Notes: generated by a model not told the origin, from the letters alone. A stretch of 32,000 bases of DNA from Halomonas cerina (GCF_014192215.1 NZ_JACHXP010000003.1:119744-151743), one strand, 5' to 3'. Positions 1,899-24,098 are shown, counted from the first letter of the stretch. Translations and numbers: made by a program.

Positions 1899-1938
1899 GG
1901 TGGTGTCCTCAATCATTGTCGTGGTCAGGCACGAGGTG

Positions 1939-2817: not shown

Positions 2818-3791
2818 GCGTCACTCGCCAGGGAAAGGGTGGTACCCAGCAGGTGCTGGGCGCCGGGGACCAGCCACACCGGGTCGAGCCGGGTGTTGGC
2901 CGACTCGACGCACAGGAAGTGGCGGCTGGCCTCGGCGGAGGTGTCGTCGGGCAGGGTGTCGCCGGGATGCCAGATCACCGCCGAGTCGCTGCCTTGGCGG
3001 GCGACGCGCAGCCGGCGCCCGCCGTCGTCGAGGACCAGCTCGGCATTGGTGTGGTAGAGGCGGTCCAGGCCGCCGCGCACCCCCAGCTCGCCCTGCTGCT
3101 CGCGCTCGGCGAAGTCGGCCAGCTTGTCCAGGTAGCGCGCGCCGGCCAGCCCCTCCACGCGGCAGGCATGGGCCTCGACCACCGCCAGGTAGCTGTGCAG
3201 GGCGCCGGTGATCTTCACCGGCGTCTCGCCGACGTGCTCGGTGATCAGCTCCACATGCAGGCGTTGGGCATTGGCCTGGACCACCGCCCGGGGGACTAAT
3301 TGGGAGTGCAGCCGCTCGACCGGGGTGAGGTGCAGCTCCAGCCCCTCCTCGTGCTCGTCCACAGCCTCGAGGCGCCAGTCGGCCTTGCGCGCCGGGCCGT
3401 GCAGGGGGCCGGAGCGGTCCGGGGACTCGTCGGCGGTGCGCTCGTCGGCGAACCAGGGCCAGCACAGCGGGATGCCGCCGCGAATCGCCCCGGGCAAGGC
3501 TTGGGGGGAGGGCGTGACCCATAGCCAGCCACCGGGGACCAAGGACTCCTCGGCGTCGTCTTGCGATGCCGAAGCGCCGGCAGCTTGCGCCTCGTCGGGC
3601 GCCGACGAGGCGCCTTCGGCGGTCGCGGCCTCCGGCGATGCCGGTAGAAAGTGAAGGACCTGGGCGCCCTGGAGCGATACGGCGAGCTCGCCCCAGGGTT
3701 CCCTGGCCAGCCAGACCTCGCGGCCGGCCCAGTCGACACGGCGCTGGCCGTCGGTGGCGTCCAGCAGGGCGCGCAGGGATGCGGGAATCAT
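2814..3791 (-). CDS. D-hexose-6-phosphate mutarotase (glucose-6-phosphate 1-epimerase, YeaD-like) with a low-complexity insertion
   Basis: IRGGIPLCWPWF and HGPARKADW match the YeaD/aldose-1-epimerase-like core. A strong GGAGGAGG SD precedes the ATG. Confidence 0.7.
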   Translation of the reverse strand: MIPASLRALLDATDGQRRVDWAGREVWLAREPWGELAVSLQGAQVLHFLPASPEAATAEGASSAPDEAQAAGASASQDDAEESLVPGGWLWVTPSPQALPGAIRGGIPLCWPWFADERTADESPDRSGPLHGPARKADWRLEAVDEHEEGLELHLTPVERLHSQLVPRAVVQANAQRLHVELITEHVGETPVKITGALHSYLAVVEAHACRVEGLAGARYLDKLADFAEREQQGELGVRGGLDRLYHTNAELVLDDGGRRLRVARQGSDSAVIWHPGDTLPDDTSAEASRHFLCVESANTRLDPVWLVPGAQHLLGTTLSLASDA

Positions 3792-3809
3792 TCATCCTCC
3801 TCCGTCGAG

Positions 3810-4778
3810 CTACTCGACCTCTTCGTTGTGCAGGGCCTCGGCGGCGCCCAGCAGGCCCGTCCAGGGGGCGGTCACCACCTGCACCGGGATATTGCCGGTG
3901 TAGGCGCTCATGCGGCCCTTGGCGGCGAAGGCCTCGAGGAAGCGGCTCTCCGGCAGCCAGTCGAGCAGGCGCGGCAGGATGCCGCCGCACAGGTAGACCC
4001 CGCCCCGGGCGCCGAGGGTGAGCGCGGCATCGCCGCTGACGTCGCCGAGGATCTTCAGGAAACGCAGCAGGGTATCACGGGCCACGCCGTCACCGCTGCC
4101 GGCCGCCTCGGTGACCTCGGCGGGAGTGGCGTAGCGGGGCGGGGCGCCCTTCAGCGAGCAGTGGGCCAGGTAGAGGTCGAGCAGGCCCTGGCCGCACAGC
4201 AGCCGCTCCACCGAGATCCGGCCGTAGCGGTTGCGGAAGTGGCGCAGCAGGTTCTGTTCGCGCTCGTCGGTAGGGGCGAAGGTCACGTGGCCGCCCTCGG
4301 TGGGCAGCGGGATCCAGGCATGCCGGCCGGGAAAGACCCCGGCGACGCCGAGGCCGGTGCCGGGGCCGATCACCAGGCGGGCGGCATGGGGCGCCGCCTC
4401 GCCGGCCTGGACGGTGACCAACTGGTCGGCGGTGACGTGAGGCACGCCCAGCGCCTGAGCCATGAAGTCGTTGATCACCTTGAACAGCGTAAGCCCCAGG
4501 GCCTCGCGCACCGCGGTCTTGGTGAAAGCCCAGTGATTGTTGGTCATCACCACTCGTTCGCCGTGCACCGGGCAGGCGAAGGCCAGGCAGGCCTCCCGTG
4601 GCGCGCGAGCACCGATGGCGCCGACCCGTGTCAGGTAGTCGCGGATGGCCGACACCGGGCCGTCGTAATCGGCACAGGGCAGACTCTGGATGTCGTGGGG
4701 GTCGACGGCGCCCGGCGTCACCAGGGCCAGGCGGGCGTTGGTGCCGCCGATGTCACCGATAAGAGCGGGTCGGGTCAT
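3810..4778 (-). CDS. glk: Glucokinase
   Basis: The N-terminal LIGDIGGTNARLALV ATP-binding motif and the overall Glk pattern are present, and the gene sits immediately downstream of edd. Confidence 0.9.
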   Translation of the reverse strand: MTRPALIGDIGGTNARLALVTPGAVDPHDIQSLPCADYDGPVSAIRDYLTRVGAIGARAPREACLAFACPVHGERVVMTNNHWAFTKTAVREALGLTLFKVINDFMAQALGVPHVTADQLVTVQAGEAAPHAARLVIGPGTGLGVAGVFPGRHAWIPLPTEGGHVTFAPTDEREQNLLRHFRNRYGRISVERLLCGQGLLDLYLAHCSLKGAPPRYATPAEVTEAAGSGDGVARDTLLRFLKILGDVSGDAALTLGARGGVYLCGGILPRLLDWLPESRFLEAFAAKGRMSAYTGNIPVQVVTAPWTGLLGAAEALHNEEVE

Positions 4779-4787
4779 GGCAGGGCC

Positions 4788-6674
<1,887 letters not shown>

Positions 6675-9423: not shown

Positions 9424-9659
9424 TTCTCATCCCCTGCTATGCTGAAGTTTGCAGAATGTAACTGTAGTGTTTCTCAGTGTGTGTGATTGGACACTTCGGC
9501 GAAGTCAAGAGCCGGGCAGATGCCGGCCAACGAACGACGCGTCAGCGCGTGGTCCGAAGCGTGTCATTCCCGATGCCCTCGGCAGGGTCATGTAGCGCGG
9601 TGGTTCACGTGGGCGACGGGATCCGCGTTCGTTGCCAACAAGGGATGAGGTGAGTCGCG

Positions 9660-11048
9660 ATGGAAAGAGAGCAACGTTGCTGGCTGGTGGCCGAGGATGC
9701 GCTGGATATCAACCATCTGGAAGCGAAAGTGAGTGCCCTGGGCTGGGACGTGCAGCGCCTGCTGGCACCGCTGTCGGACTGTTGTCTGGAGACTGAGAGT
9801 GACGGTGGTGTCGGCCTGGTCCAACTCGAGGGCATGTCGGATGCTCAACTGGGTCAGCTGGAGCCGTTGATCCTGCGGAGTCACTGCCCGTGGCTGGCCA
9901 TTGCCGCGAGCGACACCCTGAGGGATGCCGACAGGCATCGCCTGGTAGCCACGCTGTGCGTCGGGTTCATGGAGCCCGATGTCGAGGTCGCCGAGCTCGA
10001 CTGCCTGATGCGGCGGGCACTCGCCCTGTCACGGCTCCAGCAGGATGGCCTGCGTGACGATGTCGCGACCGACAGGCGCTCCGACAGCGATGAGAGCGAG
10101 ATGGTCGGCACCACGCCAGCTATGTGGGAGCTCTTCCAGACCATCCGCAAGGTGGCGGCGGTGGAGGCACCGGTCCTCATTAGTGGCGAGTCCGGTACGG
10201 GGAAGGAGCTGACGGCACAGGCCATCCATGAGCGCTCGCCCCGTGCATCGGCCGGCTTTCATGCCATCAACTGTGGTGCACTGCCGGACCATCTGATCCA
10301 GTCGGAACTCTTTGGGCATGAGAAGGGGGCCTTCACCGGTGCGGTACACAAGAAGATCGGCCGTATCGAGGCCACGGATGGCGGTACCCTGTTTCTCGAC
10401 GAGATCGGCGACCTTCCCCTGGAGTTGCAGGTCAACCTGTTGCGCTTTCTCGAGACGCGATGTATCCAGCGCGTCGGCGGGTTGGAAGACATTCCCGTGG
10501 ATGTGCGCATCATTGCCGCCACCCACGTCGATCTAGAGAAGGCCGTCGAGGAGAGACGTTTTCGCGAGGATCTCTATCATCGTCTCAACGTGCTGCAGAT
10601 CAAGGTGCCGCCCCTGCGGGAGCGCCAGGAGGACATCGAGATCCTGGCCCGCTATTTCTTCGAGCGCTTCGCCAACGAGAAGTCCAGCCGCTTGAAGGGC
10701 TTCTCGCGTGAAGCCCTGCTGGTCATGCGCCAGTATCCCTGGCCCGGCAACGTCCGTGAGCTGATCAACCGCATTCGCCGCGCGATGGTCATGTGCGAAA
10801 ATCGGCTCATCCAGCCCGTGGATCTGGGCATCGACCGCCGCAAGGCCCCCCGCCATCTCATGACGCTCGATGAGGCGCGCGATCATGCCGAGCGTGAGGT
10901 GCTGGTCGCCGCTCTGGGACGCAACAAGCACAAGGTTCATCAGGCAGCCCGGGAACTGGGGGTGTCGCGCGTCACCATCTATCGCCTGATGGAGAAGCAC
11001 GGGTTGGCCCGCTCGCCGACGGCCGCACCGGCGACAGATTCAGATTAG
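9660..11048 (+). CDS. Sigma-54-dependent transcriptional activator (bEBP) with a receiver-like but degenerate N-terminal domain
   Basis: Present are Walker A GESGTGKE, the sigma-54 contact loop ELFGHEKGAFTGA, Walker B GGTLFLDEIGD and a C-terminal Fis-type HTH AARELGVSRVTIYRLMEKHGL. A GAGGTG SD is present. Confidence 0.9.
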   Translation: MEREQRCWLVAEDALDINHLEAKVSALGWDVQRLLAPLSDCCLETESDGGVGLVQLEGMSDAQLGQLEPLILRSHCPWLAIAASDTLRDADRHRLVATLCVGFMEPDVEVAELDCLMRRALALSRLQQDGLRDDVATDRRSDSDESEMVGTTPAMWELFQTIRKVAAVEAPVLISGESGTGKELTAQAIHERSPRASAGFHAINCGALPDHLIQSELFGHEKGAFTGAVHKKIGRIEATDGGTLFLDEIGDLPLELQVNLLRFLETRCIQRVGGLEDIPVDVRIIAATHVDLEKAVEERRFREDLYHRLNVLQIKVPPLRERQEDIEILARYFFERFANEKSSRLKGFSREALLVMRQYPWPGNVRELINRIRRAMVMCENRLIQPVDLGIDRRKAPRHLMTLDEARDHAEREVLVAALGRNKHKVHQAARELGVSRVTIYRLMEKHGLARSPTAAPATDSD

Positions 11049-11104
11049 CCACTGGCATGCCTGAACTCCTTCCTTCCTCAGCGCTGCCGATCCGTGTCTT
11101 CCTC

Positions 11105-11134
11105 AGGCCTGTCTGCTCCCTGACAGGCCTTTTT
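11105..11134 (+). terminator. Rho-independent terminator after the bEBP gene
   Basis: Stem AGGCCTGTC (11105-11113), an 8-nt loop and stem GACAGGCCT (11122-11130), followed by TTTT. Confidence 0.75.
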
Positions 11135-11267
11135 CGTGCTCGGGCCGAGGCCCTTCTGCCGCGCGCCTGACTCACGCCTGTGACACTTGGTCGATCATTT
11201 TCTAACTGTTTGATTTTTTTATATTTTACGGCGTATAACGCGTGCTGCACCCGTGGCAGGCGTGTTC

Positions 11268-11287
11268 ATGTAACAAAAGAGTTACAT
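11268..11287. promoter_or_regulatory. Candidate upstream activating sequence, perfect palindrome ATGTAAC-N6-GTTACAT
   Basis: This 7-6-7 perfect inverted repeat is centred about 62 bp upstream of the -24 GG, the position expected for a bEBP enhancer. Confidence 0.5.
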
Positions 11288-11292
11288 TCTAT

Positions 11293-11305
11293 TATCAGCA
11301 ATTTG
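11293..11305 (+). promoter_or_regulatory. IHF-like site between UAS and sigma-54 promoter
   Basis: TATCAGcaatTTG has one mismatch to WATCAA-N4-TTR. It is embedded in a very AT-rich stretch of an otherwise GC-rich genome. Confidence 0.35.
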
Positions 11306-11338
11306 ATTTTTCTTTAATAAAAACAATAACCTACAAGT

Positions 11339-11354
11339 TGGCACGCCTATTGCT
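11339..11354 (+). promoter_or_regulatory. Sigma-54 (-24/-12) promoter
   Basis: TGGCACG-CCTA-TTGCT is a perfect match to TGGCAC-N5-TTGCW. It lies 47 nt upstream of the first SD-preceded ATG (11401) and directly downstream of a bEBP gene. Confidence 0.85.
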
Positions 11355-11400
11355 CCTTAAATTGTAAAAAAGAGTGACTGAACGTTTTGGAGCTGCCGAC

Positions 11401-11781
11401 ATGCCCTTCCCCTCCTGCCCCATATGCCTTCATGCCAGCCCTCATCGGGCATGCCGCCTGTTCGGGCTGCTGCTGGGCCTCGCCATGGGGGTCGGGGGAG
11501 CGAGCGCCCAGGCACATGGCGTGGTCGGTGATACCGCAACCGGCGAGGGGGCGGCCGACGCGAGCGGGCTGGTGCGCCTGGATGATGAGAGGCTTGCAGC
11601 GATTCGCGGGCGCTACCTCGACGCTCGGAGCTTCACCGATCAGGACGGTGACTTCGTGATCCTCTGGGACGAGCGTCCCCCGGGAAACGCCGGCGGCAAA
11701 GGGCAGGGCAATGGCAAGTCGCTCTCCTCCGGGCTCGGCAATCAACAGCACACCCGCGTAACCAGCCATAGGGAGCAGTGA
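11401..11781 (+). CDS. Small secreted protein of unknown family (first gene of the sigma-54 operon)
   Basis: A GGAG SD lies 8 nt before ATG 11401. The signal-peptide-like N-terminus is RACRLFGLLLGLAMGVGGASAQA. Motifs LDDERLAAIRG and GDFVILWD are shared with the next ORF. The track start at 11374 would leave almost no 5' UTR after the predicted TSS. Confidence 0.55.
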   Translation: MPFPSCPICLHASPHRACRLFGLLLGLAMGVGGASAQAHGVVGDTATGEGAADASGLVRLDDERLAAIRGRYLDARSFTDQDGDFVILWDERPPGNAGGKGQGNGKSLSSGLGNQQHTRVTSHREQ

Positions 11782-11783
11782 AC

Positions 11784-12290
11784 ATGAGCGACCGCCATCT
11801 ACATTTCTCGCGTACCGCCCGCCGCTGGCTGCTGGTGGTGGCCCTGGCCACACCGGCCGCGGGCCTGCAGGCCGACGATGGCACCTCGGGGGCGCGGCTG
11901 AATCCCGGTGTCCTGCCCGGTGACATCGTCATCCTTCGCGATGTCGATTCGGCCGTATACGGCCAGGTCGAGCGCCATGCCGGGGAGATCACGTCGCGGG
12001 TCAATGCCCGCCATGGCGCCCTGGAGGCCCAGCAGCGGCTGATCGGCATCCAGGCTATCTCCCTCAGCGACGAACGGGCCGCCAGCATCCACGGCGGTGT
12101 GCAGGGATCGATACACCATCTACATCGGGCGCTGGGGACCCATCCGGGCATGGGCGCCCGCGCCACCGGCAGCGCCAGTCGGGCGCCATCCGTGCTCGGG
12201 GGAAGCGCTGGCGGCAGCGTTCGCTCGCTCACCTCGGGCATCGCCGACACCCTCGATGGGGCGCTGGCACCGCTGACAGGAGGGCGCTGA
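11784..12290 (+). CDS. Small secreted protein of unknown family (second gene)
   Basis: A GGGAG SD lies 8 nt before ATG 11784, and the start is 2 nt after the upstream stop. The signal peptide is RRWLLVVALATPAAGLQA. Motifs GDIVILRD and LSDERAASIHG are present, with a Gly/Ser/Ala-rich C-terminal tail. Confidence 0.6.
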   Translation: MSDRHLHFSRTARRWLLVVALATPAAGLQADDGTSGARLNPGVLPGDIVILRDVDSAVYGQVERHAGEITSRVNARHGALEAQQRLIGIQAISLSDERAASIHGGVQGSIHHLHRALGTHPGMGARATGSASRAPSVLGGSAGGSVRSLTSGIADTLDGALAPLTGGR

Positions 12291-12292
12291 GC

Positions 12293-12703
12293 ATGGATGA
12301 CGGGACGAGCACCATCCACACGTTGCTCCAGCTGGCAAGCCACCTAGAGGACCTCACGCCTCATCAGGTCAGCACCAAGATTCAGGACCACGCCTTTCGG
12401 CAGTCACAGGGCTGGCTGTCGGTCAATCAGACGGCGGGTCTCGGTAATGTACGGAGCCACCCCGAAGGGGGTGTTCTGAGCATCTCGGCCAGCCACCTCA
12501 ACGACACCATCCTGCAGCAGGTGCTGGCCGACAGGCAGGGGCTGAATGGTGACCGCGATGACCGAACGGATCTCTCGCGCAGGATCGAGGTCGACGAGTC
12601 GATCTTCGAGGGAGCCCGCGGCGTCATCCAGGTCAACCAGTCAGCCGGCACGGGGAACGCTACCCGCCACAGCTTTAGCATGTCCATACAGCTCGCGCGG
12701 TAG
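12293..12703 (+). CDS. Leaderless 136-aa protein with two degenerate copies of the amyloid-repeat core
   Basis: An AGGAGG SD is present and the ATG is 2 nt after the upstream stop. GWLSVNQTAGLGNVRSH (aa 40-56) and GVIQVNQSAGTGNATRH (aa 110-126) share G-x3-VN-x2-AG-x-GN with the repeats of the next gene. No N-terminal signal peptide is visible. Confidence 0.6.
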   Translation: MDDGTSTIHTLLQLASHLEDLTPHQVSTKIQDHAFRQSQGWLSVNQTAGLGNVRSHPEGGVLSISASHLNDTILQQVLADRQGLNGDRDDRTDLSRRIEVDESIFEGARGVIQVNQSAGTGNATRHSFSMSIQLAR

Positions 12704-12755
12704 GTAGCGACATCGCAATGCAACGAAACGCGTTGGTTCATTCAGGAGAAAGCTC

Positions 12756-13913
12756 ATGACCACCTTCAAGAAAGCACCGCTGGCCTTGGCCGTTACCGCA
12801 CTGATGGCCACCCCCTACGCCCTGGCCGATGGCGTCAACAACAGCTTCATCGGCAGCTACAACAAGTTCGACACCGACAGCACCATCGACTCCGATTTCG
12901 ACAATCGGATCGATGTGGAACTGCGCCACGACTCGGACACCTACAAGGACTTCTACGTCAATGTCTGGACCTTTGACCCGGCGCGCCACTACTCCGGGGC
13001 CACCGTGGACAGCAAGCAGCTGATCAACTACGCCGACGTGACCAACCGCATGGCCGAGAACAACGCCACCCTGAATGGCAATGCACTGGAAGGTGCCTCG
13101 GGCAACGTGGGCGTCAACGTGGCGGCCGGTGACAGCAACAGTCAGGCCAATGACGCTGCCCTGTCGGCCTCGGATGCCGAACGGGTATTCGGCCAGGCCG
13201 CGGCCTTCTCGGCCCAGTCCTCCTCCAACACCTATGTGGCAAGCACCGGTAGCCCCAACAACGCCACTCTCGCCGATTATGCCCTGCAGGGCGCCACCGG
13301 CAATATCGGCGTCAACGTGGCCGCCGGGGTCGGCAACGCCCAGCAGAACTCGCTGGCCGCCTCCTCCAATACCCGGTCCGGCTCTGCCGATGCCACCACC
13401 GGTGGCGTGCAGACCGCCTACTACAACTACAGCCGCAGCCAGGGCCACACCGAGACCTTCACCAACCGGGTCGGCGTCAGGGTGTCCGGGGTGATGGTGG
13501 GCGGCTACCTCGGCGGCGGCAGCGGCGGCTACGCGGGCACCTGGGAGCAGACCAACCAGGTCTACCCGGAGATCTGGCTGGGCGGCTCCGAGGCAAGCGG
13601 CCACCCGGGGGGCTCCACCTACGTGGGTCACCTGGACTTCGATGGCAACAGTGCCAACACCGACCAGTTCGCCGGCACGGAGCGAGGCCGCCTCGGCTTC
13701 CGCGAGGCGGGCCTGATGGCCATGGGCGGCACCCTGTCCGGCGGCGTGACCACCACCAACACCGTCTATATCGCCGCCGAGAACAACGCCACCCTGAGCG
13801 ACTACGCCCTGTTGGGCGCCAGTGGCAATATCGGCGTGAACGTGGCCGCGGGCAACAACAACCTGCAGCGCAACTCCCTGGCCATCGCCTCGGCCACGGG
13901 TGGAACGCAGTAA
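12756..13913 (+). CDS. Secreted FapC-like repeat protein (putative functional-amyloid or adhesin major subunit)
   Basis: An AGGAGA SD and the Sec signal peptide MTTFKKAPLALAVTALMATPYALA are present. There are three 37-aa repeats of the form NNATL-x3-AL-x-GA-x-GN[VI]GVNVAAG-x2-N-x-Q-x-N. The protein is Cys-free and rich in N/Q/G/A/S/T. Confidence 0.8.
   Translation: MTTFKKAPLALAVTALMATPYALADGVNNSFIGSYNKFDTDSTIDSDFDNRIDVELRHDSDTYKDFYVNVWTFDPARHYSGATVDSKQLINYADVTNRMAENNATLNGNALEGASGNVGVNVAAGDSNSQANDAALSASDAERVFGQAAAFSAQSSSNTYVASTGSPNNATLADYALQGATGNIGVNVAAGVGNAQQNSLAASSNTRSGSADATTGGVQTAYYNYSRSQGHTETFTNRVGVRVSGVMVGGYLGGGSGGYAGTWEQTNQVYPEIWLGGSEASGHPGGSTYVGHLDFDGNSANTDQFAGTERGRLGFREAGLMAMGGTLSGGVTTTNTVYIAAENNATLSDYALLGASGNIGVNVAAGNNNLQRNSLAIASATGGTQ
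13059..13169 (+). repeat. Amyloid-type imperfect repeat R1 (aa 102-138)
   Basis: The R1 sequence is NNATLNGNALEGASGNVGVNVAAGDSNSQANDAALSA. Confidence 0.85.
13257..13367 (+). repeat. Amyloid-type imperfect repeat R2 (aa 168-204)
   Basis: The R2 sequence is NNATLADYALQGATGNIGVNVAAGVGNAQQNSLAASS. Confidence 0.85.
13782..13892 (+). repeat. Amyloid-type imperfect repeat R3 (aa 343-379)
   Basis: The R3 sequence is NNATLSDYALLGASGNIGVNVAAGNNNLQRNSLAIAS. It is also similar to R2 at the DNA level. Confidence 0.85.
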
Positions 13914-13954
13914 ACCCTCGGCCGGGGCCTTCCCGGCCGACGGTGCCACATGCC

Positions 13955-13990
13955 ACCCGGCCTGCCGAGCAGGCCGGGTGTTTGTTGTGG
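13955..13990 (+). terminator. Hairpin terminator/attenuator after the repeat-protein gene
   Basis: A 10-bp stem ACCCGGCCTG / CAGGCCGGGT with a 5-nt loop is followed by GTTTGTTGT. A second GC hairpin (TCGGCCGG...CCGGCCGA) lies at about 13919-13939. Confidence 0.6.
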
Positions 13991-14157
13991 TGCGCCAGGC
14001 ATGGCGTGAGGCCTGTGACTGTAAGGACTGGTCAGGCACGCTGCGCTGACGACGACCAACGGAGGGGTGGTCTACACTTGGCTAGCTTAATACGCTAGTC
14101 ATCGGTAACCAGCAATATACACAGCCGAGGTCCGGCAGACAGTAGAGGCACAAGGAG

Positions 14158-15243
14158 ATGAGTGTGGAAAAAACAGATGTTTTCATGACGAAGCGGGTGC
14201 CACCCCTCTCCCTCTTCCTCATGGCGGCCTCCTTCGGAGGGGCCACGGCAGTGCAGGCGCAGATGACCGGTGACGACGGCGAGGTGGTGCGTCAGGCCCG
14301 ACCCAGCCAGAGCGTGGAGAATGTGCTGAGGGAGGAACACGCGCTCTTCTCGGACCGGCTGACCATCGAACCGGGCATCAACTACTCCTACTCCGATCGC
14401 TCCCAGCTGGCGCTGCGCGGTTTCCTGGCCTTGGATGCCATCTTCCTGGGCAATATCGATGTCGATACGGTCGAAAGCCACATCACTACCTTCGATATCA
14501 ATACCCGCTACGGCCTGACCGACCGGCTCGAGGTGGGCCTCAATCTCCCCTTCGTCTATCGCAGCAGCACCTACCAGTCGATCGGGGCCGATAATGATAC
14601 TGAGCAGAATGAAGAAACCTCGGTGGATGAGTCGGATGTAGGGGATATCAGCCTGACCTTCGCCTACCGGATGCTGCCGGAGACCGAGACCCGCCCCGAC
14701 CTGGTATGGAACTTCGCCGTCCGGGCGCCCACCGGTACAGACCCCTACGGCATTGCGACCAGAGAAGCGGGGGACAATCTATTTGTACCCACCGAACTAC
14801 CCACGGGCAATGGCGTCTGGGGGGTGAGCACGGGGATCTCGGCGCTCAAGACTCTGGACCCGGCGATCGTCTTCGCCAACCTGGGCTTCACCTACAACTT
14901 CGAGGAGAGCTTCGACGATATCTCGGCAACGGACGGCGACCAGCCGGGCGACGTCAAGCTGGGGGACAGCATCCGCGCCGGCTTCGGCACGGCCTTTGCT
15001 CTCAATGAACGCTTCAGCCTGTCGCTCTCCTATGCCCATGAGTACATCAAGAAGTCGGAAACGACGACCGAGGAAGGGGGGACCCGTGAGGTGATCGGCA
15101 GCGATGCCAATGTCGGGGTAATGAGCCTGGGCGGGACCTATGCCATGAGCGACAGTACCTCCCTCGTCACCAGCCTGGGGGTAGGGCTCACCGATGATGC
15201 CTCGGATGTCAGCCTGACCTTCCGCATGCCCTTCCAGATGTAA
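14158..15243 (+). CDS. Outer-membrane beta-barrel protein (transporter-like; occupies the position FapF has in fap operons)
   Basis: The signal peptide is KRVPPLSLFLMAASFGGATAVQAQ. Alternating amphipathic strands run throughout, with the motifs DVGDISLTFAYRML and VRAPTGTDPY, and the aromatic-rich C-terminus LTFRMPFQM. GTG 14164 (AGGAG SD 6 nt upstream) or ATG 14185 are alternative starts. Confidence 0.72.
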   Translation: MSVEKTDVFMTKRVPPLSLFLMAASFGGATAVQAQMTGDDGEVVRQARPSQSVENVLREEHALFSDRLTIEPGINYSYSDRSQLALRGFLALDAIFLGNIDVDTVESHITTFDINTRYGLTDRLEVGLNLPFVYRSSTYQSIGADNDTEQNEETSVDESDVGDISLTFAYRMLPETETRPDLVWNFAVRAPTGTDPYGIATREAGDNLFVPTELPTGNGVWGVSTGISALKTLDPAIVFANLGFTYNFEESFDDISATDGDQPGDVKLGDSIRAGFGTAFALNERFSLSLSYAHEYIKKSETTTEEGGTREVIGSDANVGVMSLGGTYAMSDSTSLVTSLGVGLTDDASDVSLTFRMPFQM

Positions 15244-15399
15244 GCCTTCCGGTACCCATGCGCGGCGGCGGGTCCTTCGGCCCGCCCTGCCAGCTACTTC
15301 TGATGTCCGCTTGCCTCGGGCCAGGCGTTGGCACCTCGCCGGCGCCCGGCACATGATGGCATAATGCCCGCCATTGAAACGTCATGGCGGAAGGCCCGG

Positions 15400-15738
15400 A
15401 TGCTGAAGTGGCTGTCCATCCTGCTTATCACCCTGCTTGTCCTGCTGCAGTATCGCCTGTGGCTGGGGGAAGGCGGGTTCAATGAGCTGACCGAGCTGCG
15501 CCAGCGGGTGGCGGCCATGGAGGCCGAGAACCGCCCCATGCGCGAGCGCAATGCGCGTCTCGCCGCCGAGGTGGTCGACCTCAAGACGGGGCTGGCGGCC
15601 ATCGAGGAGCGCGCCCGCAGCGACATCGGCATGGTGCGCCGCGACGAGCAGTTCTTCTGGGTGCCCGGCGTGGCGGCGCCGGCCGATAAGCCGGGCCACG
15701 GCGAACCGGCGGCCCAGCCGGGTAAGGGGGCGCCATGA
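15400..15738 (+). CDS. ftsB: Cell division protein FtsB
   Basis: MLKWLSILLITLLVLLQYRLWLGEGG forms a TM segment followed by a coiled coil, which is the typical FtsB layout. The gene lies immediately upstream of ispD, as in many gammaproteobacteria. Confidence 0.85.
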   Translation: MLKWLSILLITLLVLLQYRLWLGEGGFNELTELRQRVAAMEAENRPMRERNARLAAEVVDLKTGLAAIEERARSDIGMVRRDEQFFWVPGVAAPADKPGHGEPAAQPGKGAP

Positions 15739-16487
15739 GCGAGCGTCTCTGGCTGGTGGTGCCGGCAGCCGGCCGTGGCCGGCGCATGGGCGCTGCGCTG
15801 CCCAAGCAGTACCTGATGCTAACTGGGCGGCCCGTCCTGACTCATACGCTGGCGCGGCTGCATGCCGCCTTCCCCGAGGCCCGGCTCTGCCTCTGCCTGG
15901 ATCCCGACGATCACCACTTCGATCCTGCCTGGGTACCCTTTACCGACTGGCGTCGTGTCAACGGCGGGGCCGAGCGCGCCGACTCGGTGGCCAATGCCCT
16001 CGATGCCATCGCCTTGGAAGCCGACGCCAAGGACCTGGTGCTGGTCCACGACGTGGCCCGGCCCTGCGTGACTGTCGAGGACCTTGCCCGGTTGTACGCG
16101 GTCATCGCCGAGGATCCGGTAGGAGGACTCTTGGCCGCGCCGGTGGCCGATACCATGAAGCGTGACGATGGCGCCGGCCGGGTGGCCGCCACCGAATCCC
16201 GCGAGGGGCTCTGGCAGGCCCTGACACCCCAGGGATTTCGCTACGGGCTGCTGCGTCGCGCCCTGGCCATGGCGCCGGGCTGCGGTGTCCTGGTGACCGA
16301 CGAGGCCTCCGCCGTCGAGACCCTGGGCATGGCGCCCCGACTGGTGGCCGGGCGCCGCGATAACCTGAAGATCACTCACCCCGACGACCTGGCCCTGGCC
16401 GAGCGGGTGCTGGCCGCCCAGGTCGCCTCGGGGACAACACCGCCCGCTATCATCGGGCCGCCTGTCGAGAGGGAGAGAGACACATGA
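15735..16487 (+). CDS. ispD: 2-C-methyl-D-erythritol 4-phosphate cytidylyltransferase
   Basis: [20 protein letters not shown] is the N-terminal IspD motif. The start overlaps the ftsB stop as ATGA. Confidence 0.9.
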
Positions 16488-16975
16488 TGCGTATCGGTCA
16501 CGGCGTCGACGTGCACCGCTTCGGTGCGGGAGATCACCTGATGATCGGTGGCGTGGCCATTCCGTTCGACCAGGGGTTCGTCGCCCACTCCGACGGCGAC
16601 GTCCTGCTGCACGCGATCTGCGATGCCCTGCTGGGAGCCTGTGGGCTGGGCGACATCGGCCGTCATTTCCCGGATACCGACCCGGCCTGGGCCGGTGCCG
16701 ACAGCCGGGCCCTGCTGCGCCACGTGGTGGCGCTGGTGCACCGGGCGGGCTTCCGGCTCGGCAACCTGGATGCCACCGTGATCGCTCAAGCACCCAGAAT
16801 GGCGCCTCACCTCCCGGCCATGGCCGCCCACCTCGCCGAGGATCTTCAGGTCTCGAGCGCGGCGGTCAACGTCAAGGCCACCACTACCGAGCGGCTGGGC
16901 TTCATCGGCCGCGGTGAAGGCATCGCCGCCGAGGCCGTGGCCCTGCTGATTGCCACGGAGGCGGCCGGTGACTGA
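16484..16975 (+). CDS. ispF: 2-C-methyl-D-erythritol 2,4-cyclodiphosphate synthase
   Basis: [12 protein letters not shown] and [18 protein letters not shown] are the IspF signature. The start overlaps the ispD stop as ATGA. Confidence 0.93.
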
Positions 16976-18089
16976 TGCCATCGACTGGCCACCGGCCTGG
17001 CCCCGGGTGCTGGATGCACGCTTCGGCGCTCCGGCCGCCGGGGGCTATCGGGCCACACCAGAGGCGTTCCGGGTCGAGGAGTGCCTGGACTTCGCACCCG
17101 AGGGTCACGGCGAGCATCTCTGGCTGTGGATCGAGAAGCGCGACCTGACCACCGCCATGGGGGCCCGCCAGCTGGCCTGGGCCTGTGGGGTCTCCCCCCG
17201 GGATGTCGGCTATGCCGGCATGAAGGACCGCTCGGCGGTCACCCGGCAGTGGTTCTCGGTGCACCTGCCGGGGCGCGAGGCACCCGCTGACCTCGAAGCC
17301 GCACTCGCGAGCGCCTCGCTCACCTTGCTGGCCCAGACGCGGCACCCACGCAAGCTCAAGCGCGGCGTACACCGCGCCAATCGCTTCCGGCTGCGTCTCA
17401 CCGGCCCGGCGCTGGAGGATCCCGGCTTCGCCGAGCGCTGGGCCTGGCTCTGCCAGCATGGGGTGGCGAACTATTTCGGCCCCCAGCGCTTCGGGCCCGA
17501 AGGTCGTAACCTGCACCGTGCGGTCAGGGTGCTGGCCGGCGGCTGGCGCAAGCGGGATGACCGCGAGGGCATGCTGCTCTCGGCGGCGCGCAGCTTCCTG
17601 TTCAACACGCTGCTGGCCGAACGCGTCCGCGAGGGCAACTGGGCCACGCCGCTGCCGGGGGAGGTGGTGGTCCTCGATGGCAGTGCCAGCCAGTTCACCG
17701 CCGAGGCCGTCGATGCCTCGCTGCGCGAGCGTGCCGAGCGCCTCGACCTGCACCCCTCGGGGATCCTCTGGGGCATCGGTGGCTCGGTGGCCCAGGGCGA
17801 GGCGCTGGCTCGTGAGCGAGACCTGGCAGATCACTACCCGGCACTCTGTGCCGGCCTCGAGCGGGCCGGCGTACGGCTCGGTCGACGCCCCCTGCGCCTG
17901 CGGCTGGAGGCGCCGAGGTTCGAGGCCGGCGAGGGCGAGGCCTGGCTGTCCTTCACGCTGGCACGAGGCGGCTTCGCCACGGCCGTGCTGCGCGAGCTGA
18001 TCGCCCACCCCAGCCTGAGTTTTCGAACGCCCCCCGCGGGGCCCCTGCAAGGAGGCGAGGATGCGACGTCTGCTGCTGTCCAACGATGA
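16968..18089 (+). CDS. truD: tRNA pseudouridine(13) synthase TruD
   Basis: [22 protein letters not shown] and [17 protein letters not shown] are TruD motifs. The start is set at GTG 16968 because of a GGAGG SD 6 nt upstream. The track ORF starts at TTG 16950. Confidence 0.88.
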
Positions 18090-18807
18090 CGGAGTACATG
18101 CCCCGGGCCTGCGGGCGCTGCATGACGCCCTGATCGCCCATGCGCGCCTGCGCGTGGTGGCGCCGGACCGCGACAAGAGCGGCGCCAGCAACTCCTTGAC
18201 GCTGACCCGGCCCCTGGCCCTTACGGCCATGGAGAACGGCTTCTACAGTGTCGATGGTACCCCCGCCGACTGTGTCTATCTGGGCGTCAACGGGGTCTGG
18301 GACGAGCGTCCCGACCTGGTGATATCGGGCATCAACCACGGTGGCAACTTGGGCGACGACGTGCTCTATTCGGGCACGGTGGCGGCCGCCATGGAAGGGC
18401 GCAGCCTGGGCATGACGGCCATCGCCATGTCGCTGATGGGCAGTCGCCACTTCGACAGTGCGGGGCGCGTGGCGGCTAGCCTGGTGGGCGCGGCGGATCA
18501 GCTGTCGCTGCCGCCACGCAGCCTGCTTAATGTCAATGTGCCGGACCTGCCCTGGAGCGAGATCCGTGGCTTTCGCGTCACTCGCCTGGGGTTTCGCGGC
18601 CCGGCGTCGCAGCCGGTGGAGGTCCGCGACCCGCGGGGGCGTAAGCGTTACTGGATCGCCCCCGTAAGCGAGAATGCCGACGATGGGCCGGATACCGACT
18701 TCGCCGCCGTCGAGAACGGCTATGTCTCCATCACGCCGCTGCAGACCGACTTGACCCAACATGCAGCGTGCGACGACGTGCAGGACTGGCTGAATGCGTT
18801 CACCTGA
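18061..18807 (+). CDS. surE: 5'/3'-nucleotidase SurE
   Basis: [20 protein letters not shown] is the SurE N-terminal motif. An AAGGAGG SD is present. The gene overlaps the truD 3' end by 29 nt. Confidence 0.92.
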
Positions 18808-18838
18808 GCTGGAGCCCGATCGCCTCAGGGGCATCGGC

Positions 18839-19474
18839 ATGACCTCGCAACGAACCCGCGATCGCCTGGTGGCACGCCTGGCGAGACAGGGCATCCGCCA
18901 TCGGCGGGTGCTGGAGGTGCTGGCCACCGAGCCGCGCCACCTGTTCCTCGACGAGGCCCTGGCGCATCGTGCCTACGAGGATACCTCGCTGCCCATTGGC
19001 CACGGCCAGACCCTCTCCCAACCGTGGATGGTGGCCCGCATGACCGAACTGGTGGTGCAGGAGGTACCCGGGCGGGTCCTGGAGATCGGCACCGGCTCCG
19101 GCTATCAGACCCTGGTGCTCTCGCGTCTGGTGAAGGAACTCTGGTCGGTGGAGCGGATCAATGCCCTGCACCGGCGGGCCGGCCACCGGCTCGGCCAACT
19201 CGGCATCGACAACGTGCACCTGCGCCTGGCCGATGGCGGACATGGCTGGCCGGAGGCCGCCCCCTTCGATGTCATCCTGCTCACCGCCTGTGCCGGCGAG
19301 CTGCCCGAGCCCCTGTTGGCTCAGCTGGCGGAGCAGGGCGTGCTGATCGCGCCGCTGGCGGATCGCACCGGCTGCCAGTGGCTGACCCGGGTGCGTCGCC
19401 ATGGCGAGCGTTTCGAGCGGCAGCGCCTGGAATCGGTCCGCTTCGTGCCCTTGCTGGAAGGCGTCATTCGTTGA
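18839..19474 (+). CDS. pcm: Protein-L-isoaspartate O-methyltransferase
   Basis: MTSQRTRDRLV, LPIGHGQTLSQPWMVARMTEL and the SAM motif VLEIGTGSGYQT are present. The start is chosen to match the typical gammaproteobacterial Pcm N-terminus. Confidence 0.9.
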   Translation: MTSQRTRDRLVARLARQGIRHRRVLEVLATEPRHLFLDEALAHRAYEDTSLPIGHGQTLSQPWMVARMTELVVQEVPGRVLEIGTGSGYQTLVLSRLVKELWSVERINALHRRAGHRLGQLGIDNVHLRLADGGHGWPEAAPFDVILLTACAGELPEPLLAQLAEQGVLIAPLADRTGCQWLTRVRRHGERFERQRLESVRFVPLLEGVIR

Positions 19475-19487
19475 AAGGAGTCAGCTG

Positions 19488-20468
19488 TTGAAGCGTCATC
19501 TCGGTATCTTTCTGCGCGGAGCCGGCATGGGGGCCGCCGACGCCGTGCCCGGCGTCTCCGGCGGCACCATCGCCTTCGTCACCGGCATCTACGAGGAACT
19601 GATTCACACCATCCGACAGTTCGGGCCCTCTGCCATCGGGGCCTGGCGCCGATGGGGGCTGCGCGGGCTGGTCGCCCATCTCAATCTGTCCTTCGTGGTG
19701 CCGCTGCTGACCGGCATCCTGGCCAGCCTGGTCAGCGTCGCGCATCTGGTGGTGTGGCTGATGGACGACCATCCGCTGCTGCTCAACGGCTTCTTCTTCG
19801 GCCTGGTAGCCGCGTCGGTGCTGGTGGTCGGCCGTCATCCCACTGACTGGCGGTGGTGGCATCTGCTGCCCCTGGTGGTCGGGCTGCTGCTGGCTCAAGC
19901 CCTGCCATCGCTAATGCCGATGGTCGCCCGCCTCGGCAGCCCCGACCTGATCCTGGTGGTGGGGGGCGCCATCGCCATCAGCGCCTTGCTGCTGCCCGGC
20001 GTGTCGGGCAGCTTCCTGCTGCTGGCCATGGGGCTCTACGGCACCGTGATGGACGGCATCCGCAGCTTCGATGTGGGCCTGCTCGGCCTCTTCGGCCTCG
20101 GCTGTCTGGTTGGTCTGTTCGTCTTCTCGCGTCTGCTCTCCTGGCTGCTGGCGTATCACCATACCGCCACCCTGCAGTTGCTGGTGGGCTTCATCGTCGG
20201 CTCCCTGCCGGTACTCTGGCCCTGGCGTGAGCTGGTACGCTACCAACTGGGCCCGGAGGGCCAGATGATCCCGCTCGATTACCGTTATCTTACCCCGGGG
20301 GACTTCACCGTCCTGACCGGCGACCCTGCGCGACTGCCGGCGGTGGTGGCGCTGATGCTGGCCGGTGTCGCCCTGGTGTTGCTGATCAGCCGGGTGAACC
20401 GCCCGGCAGCGACGACACCCGCCGGAACACGACCTGGTGCTGACAAGGAGGAAGGCTCCAATGTATAG
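19488..20468 (+). CDS. DUF368-family polytopic membrane protein (family implicated in undecaprenyl-phosphate translocation)
   Basis: GAGMGAADAVPGVSGGTIAFVTGIYEEL and a second PGVSGSFLLLAMGLY repeat are characteristic of DUF368. The start is set at TTG 19488, which has an AGGAG SD 7 nt upstream. The track ORF start inside pcm is unlikely. Confidence 0.75.
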   Translation: MKRHLGIFLRGAGMGAADAVPGVSGGTIAFVTGIYEELIHTIRQFGPSAIGAWRRWGLRGLVAHLNLSFVVPLLTGILASLVSVAHLVVWLMDDHPLLLNGFFFGLVAASVLVVGRHPTDWRWWHLLPLVVGLLLAQALPSLMPMVARLGSPDLILVVGGAIAISALLLPGVSGSFLLLAMGLYGTVMDGIRSFDVGLLGLFGLGCLVGLFVFSRLLSWLLAYHHTATLQLLVGFIVGSLPVLWPWRELVRYQLGPEGQMIPLDYRYLTPGDFTVLTGDPARLPAVVALMLAGVALVLLISRVNRPAATTPAGTRPGADKEEGSNV

Positions 20469-21558
20469 GATATTGCTGATTTCGGGCCTGACCCTGGCCC
20501 TGTCCGGCTGCACCGTCAACCAGAGCAAGGCGCCGCCGGTCCAGGTGCGCGACCTCTCGATGAGCCGTTCGACCGCCACGCCCGGCGAGTACACCGTGAA
20601 GGCCGGTGACACCCTCTACGGCATCGCCTGGCGCCACAACATGGACTATCGTGACCTGGCCCGCCTGAACCGTATCGGTCCGCCCTACCGTATCCAGACA
20701 GGGCAGACCCTGGTGCTGGGAGGCAATGGGCCGGCGGAAAGCGACGCGGCCCCGGCGCGGGAGGCCGGCGGCGCCGTGGCCACGGCGCTTGGCGGCACGG
20801 CGGCCGTATCCGGGGGAGGGAACGAGTCCCTGGACTGGGTGCTGCCCGATGCGCCGCACGAATCGGACGAGCGTGCCGAGGCCGAGAAAGAGGACCCGGC
20901 CCCCGCGTCGGCGCAGACCGACGAGGCATCAGGCCCGGGGCCGGTAGTCAGCCTGGACAGCCCGGGGGCCGATGGTCGTCTGAGCGAGCGTGACCGGGCC
21001 GAGCGTGAGCGCCGTGAGGCCGGCGAGGCGTCCACCGGGAACAGGACGCGCTCGGCGGCCACCAATGATGCCCCGGCCTCGGCTGAGCCGCCTGCCGATA
21101 AACCCGCCAGGCCGGATGCCGGTGCCGCGGTAGCCGGGGAGGCGGACAGCGAGCGACCCCGCGAACGGCGTTACACGCCGGTCAAGGAAGTGGCCTGGCG
21201 GTGGCCCGCCGATGGCGACGTCGTGGGGGCCTTCGGTGAGGGCAGCACCATTACCGCCGGCATTGATATCGCCGGACAAAAGGGGCAACCTGTCAAGGCA
21301 GCGGGGCCGGGAATCGTCGTCTATGCGGGCAGTGGTGTACGAGGTTACGGCAACCTCATCCTGCTCAAGCACAACGACCAGTTCCTCAGCGCCTACGCAC
21401 ACAATGACTCCCTGCGCGTCAAGGAGAACGACGTGGTCGAGGCCGGTGACGTGATCGCCATCATGGGCGACAGCGATGCCGAAGATGTCAGGCTTCATTT
21501 CGAGGTCCGCAAGGATGGTCAGCCCCAGGATCCCCTGGAGTTTCTGCCCCCGCGCTGA
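20461..21558 (+). CDS. nlpD: Murein hydrolase activator NlpD (lipoprotein, LysM + degenerate M23 domain)
   Basis: The lipobox LALSGC, the LysM region YTVKAGDTLYGIAWRH...YRIQTGQTLVL and the C-terminal M23-like region GIDIAGQKGQPVKAAGPGIVVYAG...LHFEVR are present. An AGGAGG SD is present. Confidence 0.9.
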   Translation: MYRILLISGLTLALSGCTVNQSKAPPVQVRDLSMSRSTATPGEYTVKAGDTLYGIAWRHNMDYRDLARLNRIGPPYRIQTGQTLVLGGNGPAESDAAPAREAGGAVATALGGTAAVSGGGNESLDWVLPDAPHESDERAEAEKEDPAPASAQTDEASGPGPVVSLDSPGADGRLSERDRAERERREAGEASTGNRTRSAATNDAPASAEPPADKPARPDAGAAVAGEADSERPRERRYTPVKEVAWRWPADGDVVGAFGEGSTITAGIDIAGQKGQPVKAAGPGIVVYAGSGVRGYGNLILLKHNDQFLSAYAHNDSLRVKENDVVEAGDVIAIMGDSDAEDVRLHFEVRKDGQPQDPLEFLPPR

Positions 21559-21673
21559 CTCGGCTCGACATCCCGCCTCGGGAGGCGTTCGTCACACAAT
21601 AATAATCTTGTGCACCGATCCTGTTCCTGCCGGTGCAGGCGGTGAGCAGTCGCAACCGATGGGGTAGCAGTCG

Positions 21674-22660
21674 ATGAGCATGCTTGAACGGGACCTTCAG
21701 GATGTGAATCTCGAGACGGCCGACGAGGTGGATGACGACGCCGTCGAGAGCGAGGCTGACGAGGAGGAGGCCGTGGATGCCGCGGCCTTCGAGAAGGCGT
21801 TGAACCGGGAGGACAAGCACTATCACCACAGCCTCGATGCCACGCAGATCTATCTCAACGAGATCGGTTTCTCGCCGCTGCTGACGCCCGAGGAAGAAGT
21901 TCACTACGGCCGCCTGGCCCAGCAAGGAGACCCCGCCGGTCGTGCGCGGATGATCGAGTCCAATCTGCGCCTGGTGGTCAAGATCGCCCGGCGCTACCTC
22001 AACCGCGGCCTGACGCTGCTGGACCTGATCGAGGAAGGCAATCTGGGCCTGATCCGGGCGGTCGAGAAGTTCGATCCGGAGCGAGGCTTCCGTTTCTCCA
22101 CCTATGCCACCTGGTGGATCCGTCAGACCATCGAGCGGGCGCTGATGAACCAGACGCGCACCATTCGTCTGCCGATCCATGTGGTGAAGGAACTCAACAT
22201 CTACCTGCGGGCCGCCCGCGAGCTGACCCAGAAGCTGGATCACGAGGCGACCGCGGAGGAGATCGCCGACTACCTCGACAAGCCGGTGGAAACCGTCAAG
22301 AAGATGATGGGGCTCAACGAGCGCATCTCCTCCGTCGACTATCCGGTAGGTAGCGAGAGCGACAAGCCCCTTATCGAGACCCTGGCCGACGACAACGATC
22401 TGGGACCGGAATCCACGCTGGTGGACGGCGACGTCAAGCAGCATGTGGACGACTGGCTGGCCGAGCTCACCGAGAAGCAGTGCGAAGTGGTGGTCCGTCG
22501 CTTCGGCCTGCGGGGGCATGAGGCCGCTACCCTCGAGCAGGTTGGCGAGGAGATCGGCCTCACCCGGGAACGGGTCCGCCAGATCCAGGTGGAGGCGCTC
22601 AAGAAGCTACGCCGCCTGCTCGACAAACAGGGGCTCTCGCTGGACGCCATCTTCGAGTGA
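21674..22660 (+). CDS. rpoS: RNA polymerase sigma factor RpoS
   Basis: Region 2 is [17 protein letters not shown]...[30 protein letters not shown] and region 4 is [24 protein letters not shown]. Conserved nlpD-rpoS synteny supports the call. Confidence 0.93.
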
Positions 22661-22681
22661 CGGCGCGTGATACCGGTCATG

Positions 22682-22713
22682 GCAGACAGCCAGGATGCGT
22701 CCTGGCTGTCTGC
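22682..22713 (+). terminator. Hairpin terminator after rpoS
   Basis: A perfect 14-bp stem GCAGACAGCCAGGA / TCCTGGCTGTCTGC has a 4-nt loop. The downstream U-tract is weak (ATTGTGG). Confidence 0.6.
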
Positions 22714-22921
22714 ATTGTGGCGGCAGGCGTGGCGAGTAAACGGCCGCTACCACCGGGTCCTGTTGTGTGGTGATCGCTGAGGGTGGTGCTTATTTCTGCA
22801 TTCTTGCCTTTTAGCGAATGTTATTTTGGCATTCATGGTTTAGTTTGGTCTATAAGGCCATGATTTATCCGGTTTATTGGTAAATAATGAGGCTTTTACC
22901 TGCCGCTGTCCGGAGTGCATG

Positions 22922-24043: not shown

Positions 24044-24098
24044 GATCCCAATGAGCCAGCCGATTCAACTGGAGCCTTGCCATGGACAGGAGACGTCA

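Follow-up and report, generated by a model that had tools for sequence, protein, structure and literature searches.

Whether a functional-amyloid system of the Fap type can export its subunits without the FapD peptidase and FapE is the question raised by a locus of Halomonas cerina that lies within a 32,000-nt stretch of the genome (the window, to whose full length all coordinates refer). The locus, all of whose features are on the + strand, consists of a gene for a sigma-54-dependent activator and five co-oriented genes downstream of it, and a first description made from the sequence alone (the original prediction) took it for a reduced or re-wired amyloid export system with new accessory proteins. 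The assignment to Fap-type functional amyloids holds, as the FapC and FapF matches given below attest, but the novelty does not: we conclude, with a probability of roughly 0.78, that the window contains the standard Fap amyloid biofilm operon of H. cerina, partly deleted, with the missing genes at a second site, and not a new secretion machine. The loss of fapD and fapE is specific to this species, which keeps both genes at that second locus (locus 2). The conclusion is built on the gene identities, two deletions, the second locus and the conservation of the promoter, all of them read from sequence.

An open reading frame (ORF) listing confirmed the five co-oriented genes (Table 1), which together with the activator gene correspond to H. 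cerina MBB3189574–MBB3189579 (contig of 301,788 bp). The 385-aa secreted protein in which FapC-type repeats had been noticed is indeed a FapC (FapC1): it matches the NCBIfam FapC profile (E 2e-50, positions 8–317 of 321, 172 bits against an equivalog cutoff of 195) and the chains of the cryo-EM FapC fibrils 9NQD (E 2e-18) and 9U4U (E 3e-14), and its translation displays three repeats of the form NNATL..GASGN[VI]GVNVAAG..N.Q.N. The last gene, described earlier as an outer-membrane barrel, is identified as fapF by the matches of its product to NCBIfam (E 7.5e-108, profile positions 85–418 of 420) and, over residues 47–359, to PDB 5O65 (E 8e-83). The three genes upstream of fapC had been called not obviously fapA or fapB, and two of them were thought to encode small signal-peptide proteins of unrecognised family. 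This description survives for the first, P2, which matched no Pfam or NCBIfam family. It may not hold for the second, P3, whose sole and best NCBIfam match is chaperone_FapA; the match is weak (E 3.9e-5, 24 bits against a cutoff of 110), that of the P3 orthologue in a related locus (L002, see below) is somewhat better (E 2.7e-6), and P3 is recognised by a Halomonas-type family hidden Markov model (HMM) at E 5e-63, its gene occupying the fapA position. P3 may therefore be called FapA-like on a weak match. The third, P4, is a truncated FapB (NCBIfam E 4e-17, only profile positions 79–189 of 190); the original prediction was right in describing it as a leaderless 136-aa protein with two degenerate repeat cores, which correspond to FapB repeats 2 and 3.

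A FapF scan of species-representative genomes supplied the relatives against which these genes can be read: 23 Halomonadaceae loci (genera Halomonas, Bisbaumannia, Billgrantia and Vreelandella; labelled L001–L023) and 10 Pseudomonas loci, their gene content being derived by tblastn and ORF reading. The fapB/P2 region is present in 22 of the 23 Halomonadaceae loci, and the counts for both genes cover those 22. FapD, a C39 peptidase, and FapE are encoded between FapC and FapF in 23/23 Halomonadaceae loci, which makes the window the sole locus among 24 that lacks fapD and fapE. In agreement with the original prediction, which saw no FapD-like or FapE-like ORF, neither protein was found in the 32-kb window by tblastn with Halomonas FapD and FapE (E<1e-3) or by family HMMs run on six-frame ORFs (E<1e-2). 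In the window, fapC and fapF are 244 bp apart, versus ~1.8 kb in the relatives; a deletion of ~1.5 kb that starts just past a GC-rich hairpin downstream of fapC has taken out fapD and almost the whole of fapE. The hairpin itself is conserved behind fapC in L001, L002, L004 and L009. It is followed by a weak T-tract, and attenuation at this site may give an excess of FapC over the products of the downstream genes.

A short stretch to the right of this hairpin (Table 1) may be what is left of fapE. It reads GAPG where L001 has ..GAPGVR.., and its alignment to L001 scores 45, compared with a mean of 20.5 (sd 3.2) for shuffled sequences (z ~7.6). With L003 the score is similar but was beaten by one shuffle, and with the other relatives it is not significant; a fapE 3′ remnant is thus only weakly suggested.

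The second deletion removed the 5′ part of fapB. In all 22 loci holding the region FapB is full length, with ~190–230 aa and a signal peptide. In the window, the fapA stop codon is directly followed by an ATG whose counterpart in the alignment is an internal position of FapB; the first ~90 codons, comprising the signal peptide and repeat 1, are covered by the deletion, and P4 is leaderless because of their removal. P4 aligns end to end with residues 77–212 of the FapB encoded at locus 2 (FapB2), at 72% identity, and is by far the shortest of the 120 FapB homologues listed, the others having 153–263 aa. Furthermore, of 49 invariant or near-invariant FapB columns, seven are altered in P4 versus one in FapB2. 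This excess of changes suggests relaxed constraint, and P4 is probably a decaying, presumably non-functional remnant of fapB.

The window locus lies where fap is usually found in Halomonadaceae, with a FemAB-like gene on its upstream side and ftsB-ispD-ispF on its downstream side, and both flanks are syntenic in 16 of the loci, which bears out the earlier remark that the locus is embedded among housekeeping genes. As the relatives' loci hold the full gene set, most of them at the same position, the window is best regarded as the ancestral locus with pieces missing and not as a different system.

The missing genes were located by searches with the FapD, FapE and FapB proteins of H. saccharevitans. 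They reside on a 459,077-bp contig of H. cerina that encodes FapE (MBB3188827), FapD (MBB3188828), a second FapC (FapC2, MBB3188829) and FapB2 (MBB3188830), the last being full length at 212 aa. Their NCBIfam matches have E-values of 1e-78 (FapD), 8e-31 (FapE), 2e-28 (FapB) and 2e-50 (FapC). The accessions are consecutive and, numbering being sequential as standard in whole-genome shotgun records, the genes are presumably adjacent, in the order fapB2-fapC2-fapD-fapE. In Logan, an independent assembly of run SRR10053986, contig L036 (SRR10053986_260) carries fapE and then, on the opposite strand, leuB-leuD-leuC; fapF is absent downstream of fapE on this contig, where leuB is found instead. Compared with the proteins of other species' syntenic loci, those of locus 2 are 63–81% (FapD), 37–64% (FapE) and 41–62% (FapB) identical, and they are further apart from the divergent second-locus proteins of H. 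saccharevitans (62.5% and 49%). By these values, the locus-2 proteins appear as close to syntenic-locus proteins as orthologues would be. Once both loci are counted, all Fap components are present in H. cerina.

L036, the fapE-leuBDC contig, was the only contig of locus 2 retrieved, with none on record that encodes FapC2 or the H. cerina FapD. It begins just 15 bp upstream of fapE (L036 1–15) and shares no k-mers of at least 20 nt with the window. The exact H. cerina FapD protein was not among the Logan gene calls.

The two loci remain tied by a common stretch that runs from the 3′ end of fapB through nearly all of fapC. The Logan assembly breaks exactly there, contig L035 ending at 12633 and contig L034 starting at 13874, as would be expected if the genome had a nearly identical copy at another place. 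FapC1 is 94% identical to FapC2 and free of frameshifts or stops. Many of the 23 differences between the two proteins fall within a few residues immediately N-terminal to the G[AS][ST]GN core, in all three repeats, and residues 226–347 (~120 consecutive residues) are identical. Both deletion junctions lie within Logan contigs that are 100% identical to the window (L035, 1784–12633; L034, 13874–25243).

The most economical history would start from the ancestral order activator, P2, fapA, fapB, fapC, fapD, fapE, fapF. The fapB-E module would first have been copied to the leuB site, after which fapD-fapE and the 5′ sequence of fapB would have disappeared from the resident locus, with fapC either retained at both places or homogenised by gene conversion. 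The outcome comes close to an ordinary split fap locus, which the original prediction had named as the alternative to its own proposal: a fapD/fapE pair does lie elsewhere in the genome, although that alternative also called for a conserved, linked position.

Genomes with two or more fap loci or modules are also found among other Halomonas. Halomonas sp. NO4 (L003 1140–11098) has a P2′-B′-C′-D′-E′ tandem ahead of P2-A-B-C-D-E-F, that is, two B-C-D-E modules, both intact, with one common fapF. Unlike these tandem modules, the second module of H. cerina lies apart from the resident one, which has suffered partial deletion. Both H. saccharevitans and strain NO4 encode two FapD peptidases; the two genes share a contig in Halomonas sp. 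NO4 and are on different contigs in H. saccharevitans.

In the arrangement that we propose, a sigma-54 promoter activated by the adjacent enhancer-binding protein, which would be of the BrfA type, drives the window operon. The window would contribute the regulator, P2, FapA, FapC1 and the only FapF pore seen, and locus 2 the FapB nucleator, the periplasmic C39 protease FapD, FapE and FapC2. By analogy with Pseudomonas, the subunits would be exported by Sec and pass through FapF in a FapD-dependent manner, with FapB nucleating and FapC polymerising. We infer that the two loci cooperate. In Pseudomonas, FapC is no longer secreted when FapD is knocked out or carries the catalytic C38A mutation, and FapE and FapB have been reported as essential (PMC5557850); because these three proteins are needed there, the window locus alone should make no fibrils.

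Several considerations weigh against this account. (i) The NCBIfam equivalog cutoffs for Fap proteins were built on Pseudomonas, and every Halomonas Fap protein scores under them. (ii) The sequencing run behind the Logan contigs is the same, or presumed the same, as that of the deposited genome, so that Logan is an independent assembly but not independent data. (iii) The 1.24-kb link between the two Logan contigs is a repeat, and the pairing of its exits rests on the NCBI assembly and conserved synteny. (iv) The locus-2 promoter and the DNA upstream of fapB2 lie beyond the retrieved sequence, and locus 2 may or may not be co-regulated by the activator. (v) The window fapF is the only one seen, and the H. 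cerina genome may have a second elsewhere. (vi) The H. cerina system is known here from its genes and not from expression or fibrils.

The stronger proposal of a working, interdependent two-locus Fap system, brought about by duplication of fapB-C-D-E and reciprocal loss, is a tentative one to which we give limited credence, and the same holds, separately, for P2 as a new accessory factor. If the former is true, the pore, FapA and one FapC would be under BrfA/sigma-54 and the nucleator, protease and FapE under another promoter, which would place amyloid assembly under two-input control.

Of the other explanations, the one that fares best sees in the window locus a decaying remnant without function, any amyloid being made by locus 2 with a fapF at an unseen place. 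Two deletions in one operon, the altered columns of the truncated fapB product compared with FapB2 and the several fap loci per genome in other Halomonas (two FapD genes in H. saccharevitans and in strain NO4) all point this way. Against it, fapC1, fapF, fapA, P2, the activator and the promoter are all intact, and FapC1 has stayed close to FapC2 with its reading frame open. Moreover, fapE at locus 2 is not followed by a fapF of its own, and Halomonas sp. NO4 runs two B-C-D-E modules with a single fapF. We consider the remnant explanation unlikely.

Much less probable still is a self-sufficient, reduced Fap-like exporter that works independently of FapD and FapE by means of P2, P3 and P4 as new accessories. 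What speaks for it is the preservation of FapC, FapF, P2 and the FapA-like gene behind a conserved sigma-54 promoter, together with the lack, in Halomonadaceae FapF, of a coiled coil that is needed in Pseudomonas, by which the mechanism is already somewhat different. Considering (i) that P3 is FapA-like and P4 a truncated FapB without a signal peptide, (ii) that P2 accompanies FapD and FapE in every relative and is no replacement for them, (iii) that the layout free of fapD and fapE occurs in 1/24 loci, (iv) that the genome retains fapB, fapD and fapE elsewhere, and (v) the requirement for FapD, FapE and FapB in the secretion of Pseudomonas FapC (PMC5557850), we see hardly any room for such a system.

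That the deletions, or the join over the 1.24-kb repeat, are draft-genome errors is the least credible explanation of all: the fapB 3′ end and fapC do exist in two ~94%-identical copies at both ends of which Logan breaks, and the run of identical FapC1/FapC2 residues could confuse a short-read assembler, but both junctions are in unique sequence within Logan contigs that match the window perfectly, and synteny with 16 relatives, which a swapped join would break, is intact on both sides.

The partly deleted standard operon is therefore the reading that we retain. Its main value is one of correction, in that a seeming minimal system free of FapD and FapE turns out to be the standard operon, altered by deletions in this one species. 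Furthermore, H. cerina offers a natural arrangement with fapDE in trans and an apparently single fapF, which could be used to test which components need co-expression.

Table 1 Features of the fap locus of H. cerina, in window coordinates
Feature	Position	Strand	Evidence and remarks
Sigma-54-dependent activator (bacterial enhancer-binding protein, bEBP)	9660..11048	+	Pfam Sigma54_activat E 1e-69, AAA_lid_14, HTH_8
Terminator-like hairpin ending the activator gene	11105..11130	+	9-bp stem, 6 GC pairs, then TTTTTCGTGCT
Putative sigma-54 (−24/−12) promoter TGGCACgcctaTTGCT	11339..11354	+	Sequence pattern in AT-rich spacer
P2, secreted 126-aa protein with signal peptide, first gene of the operon	11401..11781	+	ORF listing, family HMM
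P3, FapA-like	11784..12290	+	168 aa from ATG 11784; 170 aa from GTG 11778
Junction of the fapB 5′ deletion	12291..12295	+	~273 bp (~0.27 kb) missing relative to L002
P4, 5′-truncated fapB, 136 aa, without signal peptide and repeat 1	12293..12703	+	NCBIfam FapB
Stretch common to both fap loci, spanning the fapB 3′ end and nearly all of fapC	12634..13873	.	Logan breaks
fapC1, major amyloid subunit, 385 aa, signal peptide, three imperfect repeats	12756..13913	+	NCBIfam FapC, PDB
GC-rich hairpin 3′ of fapC resembling a terminator or attenuator, at the left boundary of the fapD-fapE deletion	13954..13980	+	12-bp stem, 10 GC pairs, then TTTGTTGTGG
Possible fapE 3′ remnant (final ~55 nt)	13989..14050	+	Alignment to L001 fapE 3′ end and fapE-fapF spacer
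fapF, outer-membrane amyloid secretion barrel with plug helix, without N-terminal coiled coil	14158..15243	+	Start may be ATG 14185 (NCBI record)

The operon's first gene encodes a protein that is absent from the descriptions in the fap literature compared here. Translation of P2 most likely starts at ATG 11401, in line with the NCBI record (126 aa). A P2 family HMM found a homologue upstream of fapA or fapB in 22/22 Halomonadaceae loci (for example, L002 5371–5793) and none in the 10 Pseudomonas fap loci (0/10); P2 is thus not specific to the window locus. The family is small, with 26 representatives at E<=1e-3 among 1.84 billion. P2 shares with FapE a 23-column motif, L.D..L..IRGR[YF]V (hhalign probability 93%, E 3e-7), which in its fuller form reads L.D..L..[IL]RG[RK][YF]V and is followed by a hydrophobic strand and a W. 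The N-terminal region of FapE, in which this P2-like motif resides, has been reported to be cleaved off on secretion in Pseudomonas (PMC5557850). None of the hhalign comparisons P2-FapA, FapA-FapE, P2-FapB and P2-FapD was significant. An AlphaFold model of P2 computed from a 22-sequence alignment is of low confidence (predicted local distance difference test score (pLDDT) 57, predicted template modelling score (pTM) 0.20) and shows a single short helix at the conserved motif. A homologue with an N-terminus like that of the window P2 (P0317) was considered as a possible locus-2 copy; its source is a metagenome contig of 567 bp, and it is uninformative.

By its distribution and motif, P2 is a conserved, Halomonadaceae-specific gene that is not fapA, fapB or fapE. 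The original prediction had reckoned with the three upstream ORFs proving to be orthologues of FapA, FapB or FapE, and this did not come about for P2, which is none of the three. P2 does not take the place of FapD and FapE either, because it co-occurs with both in every relative. A conserved, undescribed first gene whose product has a FapE-like N-terminal motif should be useful to the Fap field.

A second peculiarity of the family concerns FapF, whose N-terminal coiled-coil domain is not present in the window protein (14158–14300): only ~20 residues separate the signal peptide from the plug helix (SVENVLREEHALF). The same short N-terminus is found in 23/23 Halomonadaceae FapFs, whose genes are at about 10001 in L001–L023, including those that are encoded with FapD and FapE. 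In Pseudomonas, the N-terminal trimeric coiled coil of FapF was found to be critical for secretion (Rouse et al. 2017), and the model based on Pseudomonas sp. UK4 may not be general, since Halomonadaceae FapF has no coiled coil. If P2 is an accessory factor, it might, like a free-standing FapE N-terminal motif, assume the substrate-recruiting role of the absent domain. A tie between the loss of FapD and FapE and that of the coiled coil was also considered and rejected, as all Halomonadaceae FapFs are without it and the relatives nevertheless keep FapD and FapE.

The regulatory part of the original prediction is largely upheld. The activator gene ends with its own terminator-like hairpin, directly followed by TTTTT, and the spacer between this gene and P2 is AT-rich as described, its length being 352 bp from ATG 11401 and not 325 bp. 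The perfect −24/−12 promoter motif in this spacer is the sole match in the window to the pattern TGGCAC-N5-TTGCT, for which 0.06 matches are expected by chance, and in 15 related Halomonadaceae loci exactly the same pattern precedes the first fap gene by ~45–70 nt. The spacer also contains a perfect palindrome, TGTAAC-N6-GTTACA (11269–11286), ~55–70 nt upstream of the −24 element. As a candidate activator binding site it was rejected, being kept in no related locus.

The activator has both the AAA+ domain for interaction with sigma-54 and a C-terminal Fis-type helix-turn-helix, and its gene adjoins the fap cluster; its N-terminus matches the Pfam VpsR domain weakly (E 5e-4, below cutoff). It is 58–78% identical to the fap-linked bEBPs of Halomonadaceae loci and 43–47% identical to a bEBP whose gene lies downstream of fapF, in reverse orientation, in 9/10 Pseudomonas fap loci. 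Because these Pseudomonas homologues occupy the position described for brfA (PMC9207406), we label the window bEBP BrfA-type, and it is probably the regulator of fap. In P. fluorescens PF07, 5′ rapid amplification of cDNA ends revealed an RpoN-dependent −24/−12 promoter of fapA-E, and fap expression is lost on deletion of rpoN or of brfA (PMC9207406); fapF is not co-induced together with fapA-E in this strain. BrfA was later reported to be a bEBP that senses cyclic di-GMP (c-di-GMP) (Guo et al. 2024, Microbiol Res 287:127864, as cited in PMC13101488).

PF07 (Guo et al. 2022, PMC9207406) and the window thus have in common an adjacent sigma-54 activator of the Fis type and a −24/−12 promoter before the first fap gene. 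They differ in the place of the activator: in PF07 and the Pseudomonas loci its gene follows fapF on the other strand, whereas most Halomonas loci have it upstream, in the same orientation. L019–L021 follow the Pseudomonas pattern, their fap-linked bEBP being reversed and downstream of fapF. The likeness to BrfA is drawn through the bEBPs of the Pseudomonas fap loci compared here, and the lead towards c-di-GMP sensing by the window bEBP is the weak VpsR match at its N-terminus. To judge by promoter and activator, sigma-54 control of the window fap locus appears real but is already known from BrfA/RpoN in P. fluorescens; the adjacent sigma-54 activator put forward in the original prediction stands.

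Comparison with the Pseudomonas fapABCDEF operon (Pseudomonas sp. UK4, P. aeruginosa PAO1, P. fluorescens) places the window within known Fap systems. Both have a three-repeat FapC, a plugged-barrel FapF and FapA- and FapB-like genes, and, apart from the missing genes, the gene order is that of Pseudomonas; the Halomonadaceae relatives hold the full A-B-C-D-E-F. Unlike in Pseudomonas, fapD and fapE are absent from the window and fapB is truncated, the corresponding functions being encoded at a second site. The added first gene P2 and the FapF without an N-terminal coiled coil set Halomonadaceae as a whole apart. Published deviations from fapABCDEF are the absence of fapA and the detachment of fapF (PMC3792158), the latter in 4/16 genera (Dueholm et al. 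2013, PMC3792158). Detached-fapF systems resemble that of H. cerina in having Fap genes at two chromosomal sites with fapF apart from fapD and fapE. In H. cerina, however, fapF stays at the ancestral site with the regulator, P2, fapA and a copy of fapC, it is a B-C-D-E module that is found elsewhere, and the split comes with fapC duplication and deletions at the ancestral site. Its layout is a further variant beyond the two published ones.

The Acinetobacter Fil putative pilus, with its C39 peptidase FilB and barrel FilC, appears among the secondary NCBIfam matches (FapF-FilC E 3e-22, FapD-FilB E 6e-32). These matches are far weaker than those to Fap, and Fil is a related family to which the window locus does not belong. 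In L019 (Billgrantia aerodenitrificans), the region just upstream of the fap operon (1053–4943) encodes FapD-like, FapF-like and bEBP proteins at 36%, 32% and 42% identity, respectively; this extra gene set may be a neighbouring Fap- or Fil-like system.

A search of the window with Rfam at gathering thresholds gave zero matches. Upstream of the activator gene lie the FemAB-like gene and genes for an aldehyde dehydrogenase, edd, glk, an aldose epimerase and an aldo-keto reductase. Downstream of fapF, positions 15328–25243 (on Logan contig L034) contain a conserved cluster of housekeeping genes, ftsB-ispD-ispF-truD-surE-pcm, a VCA0040-like gene and nlpD-rpoS, and then genes for alanine racemase and a lipid A acyltransferase.

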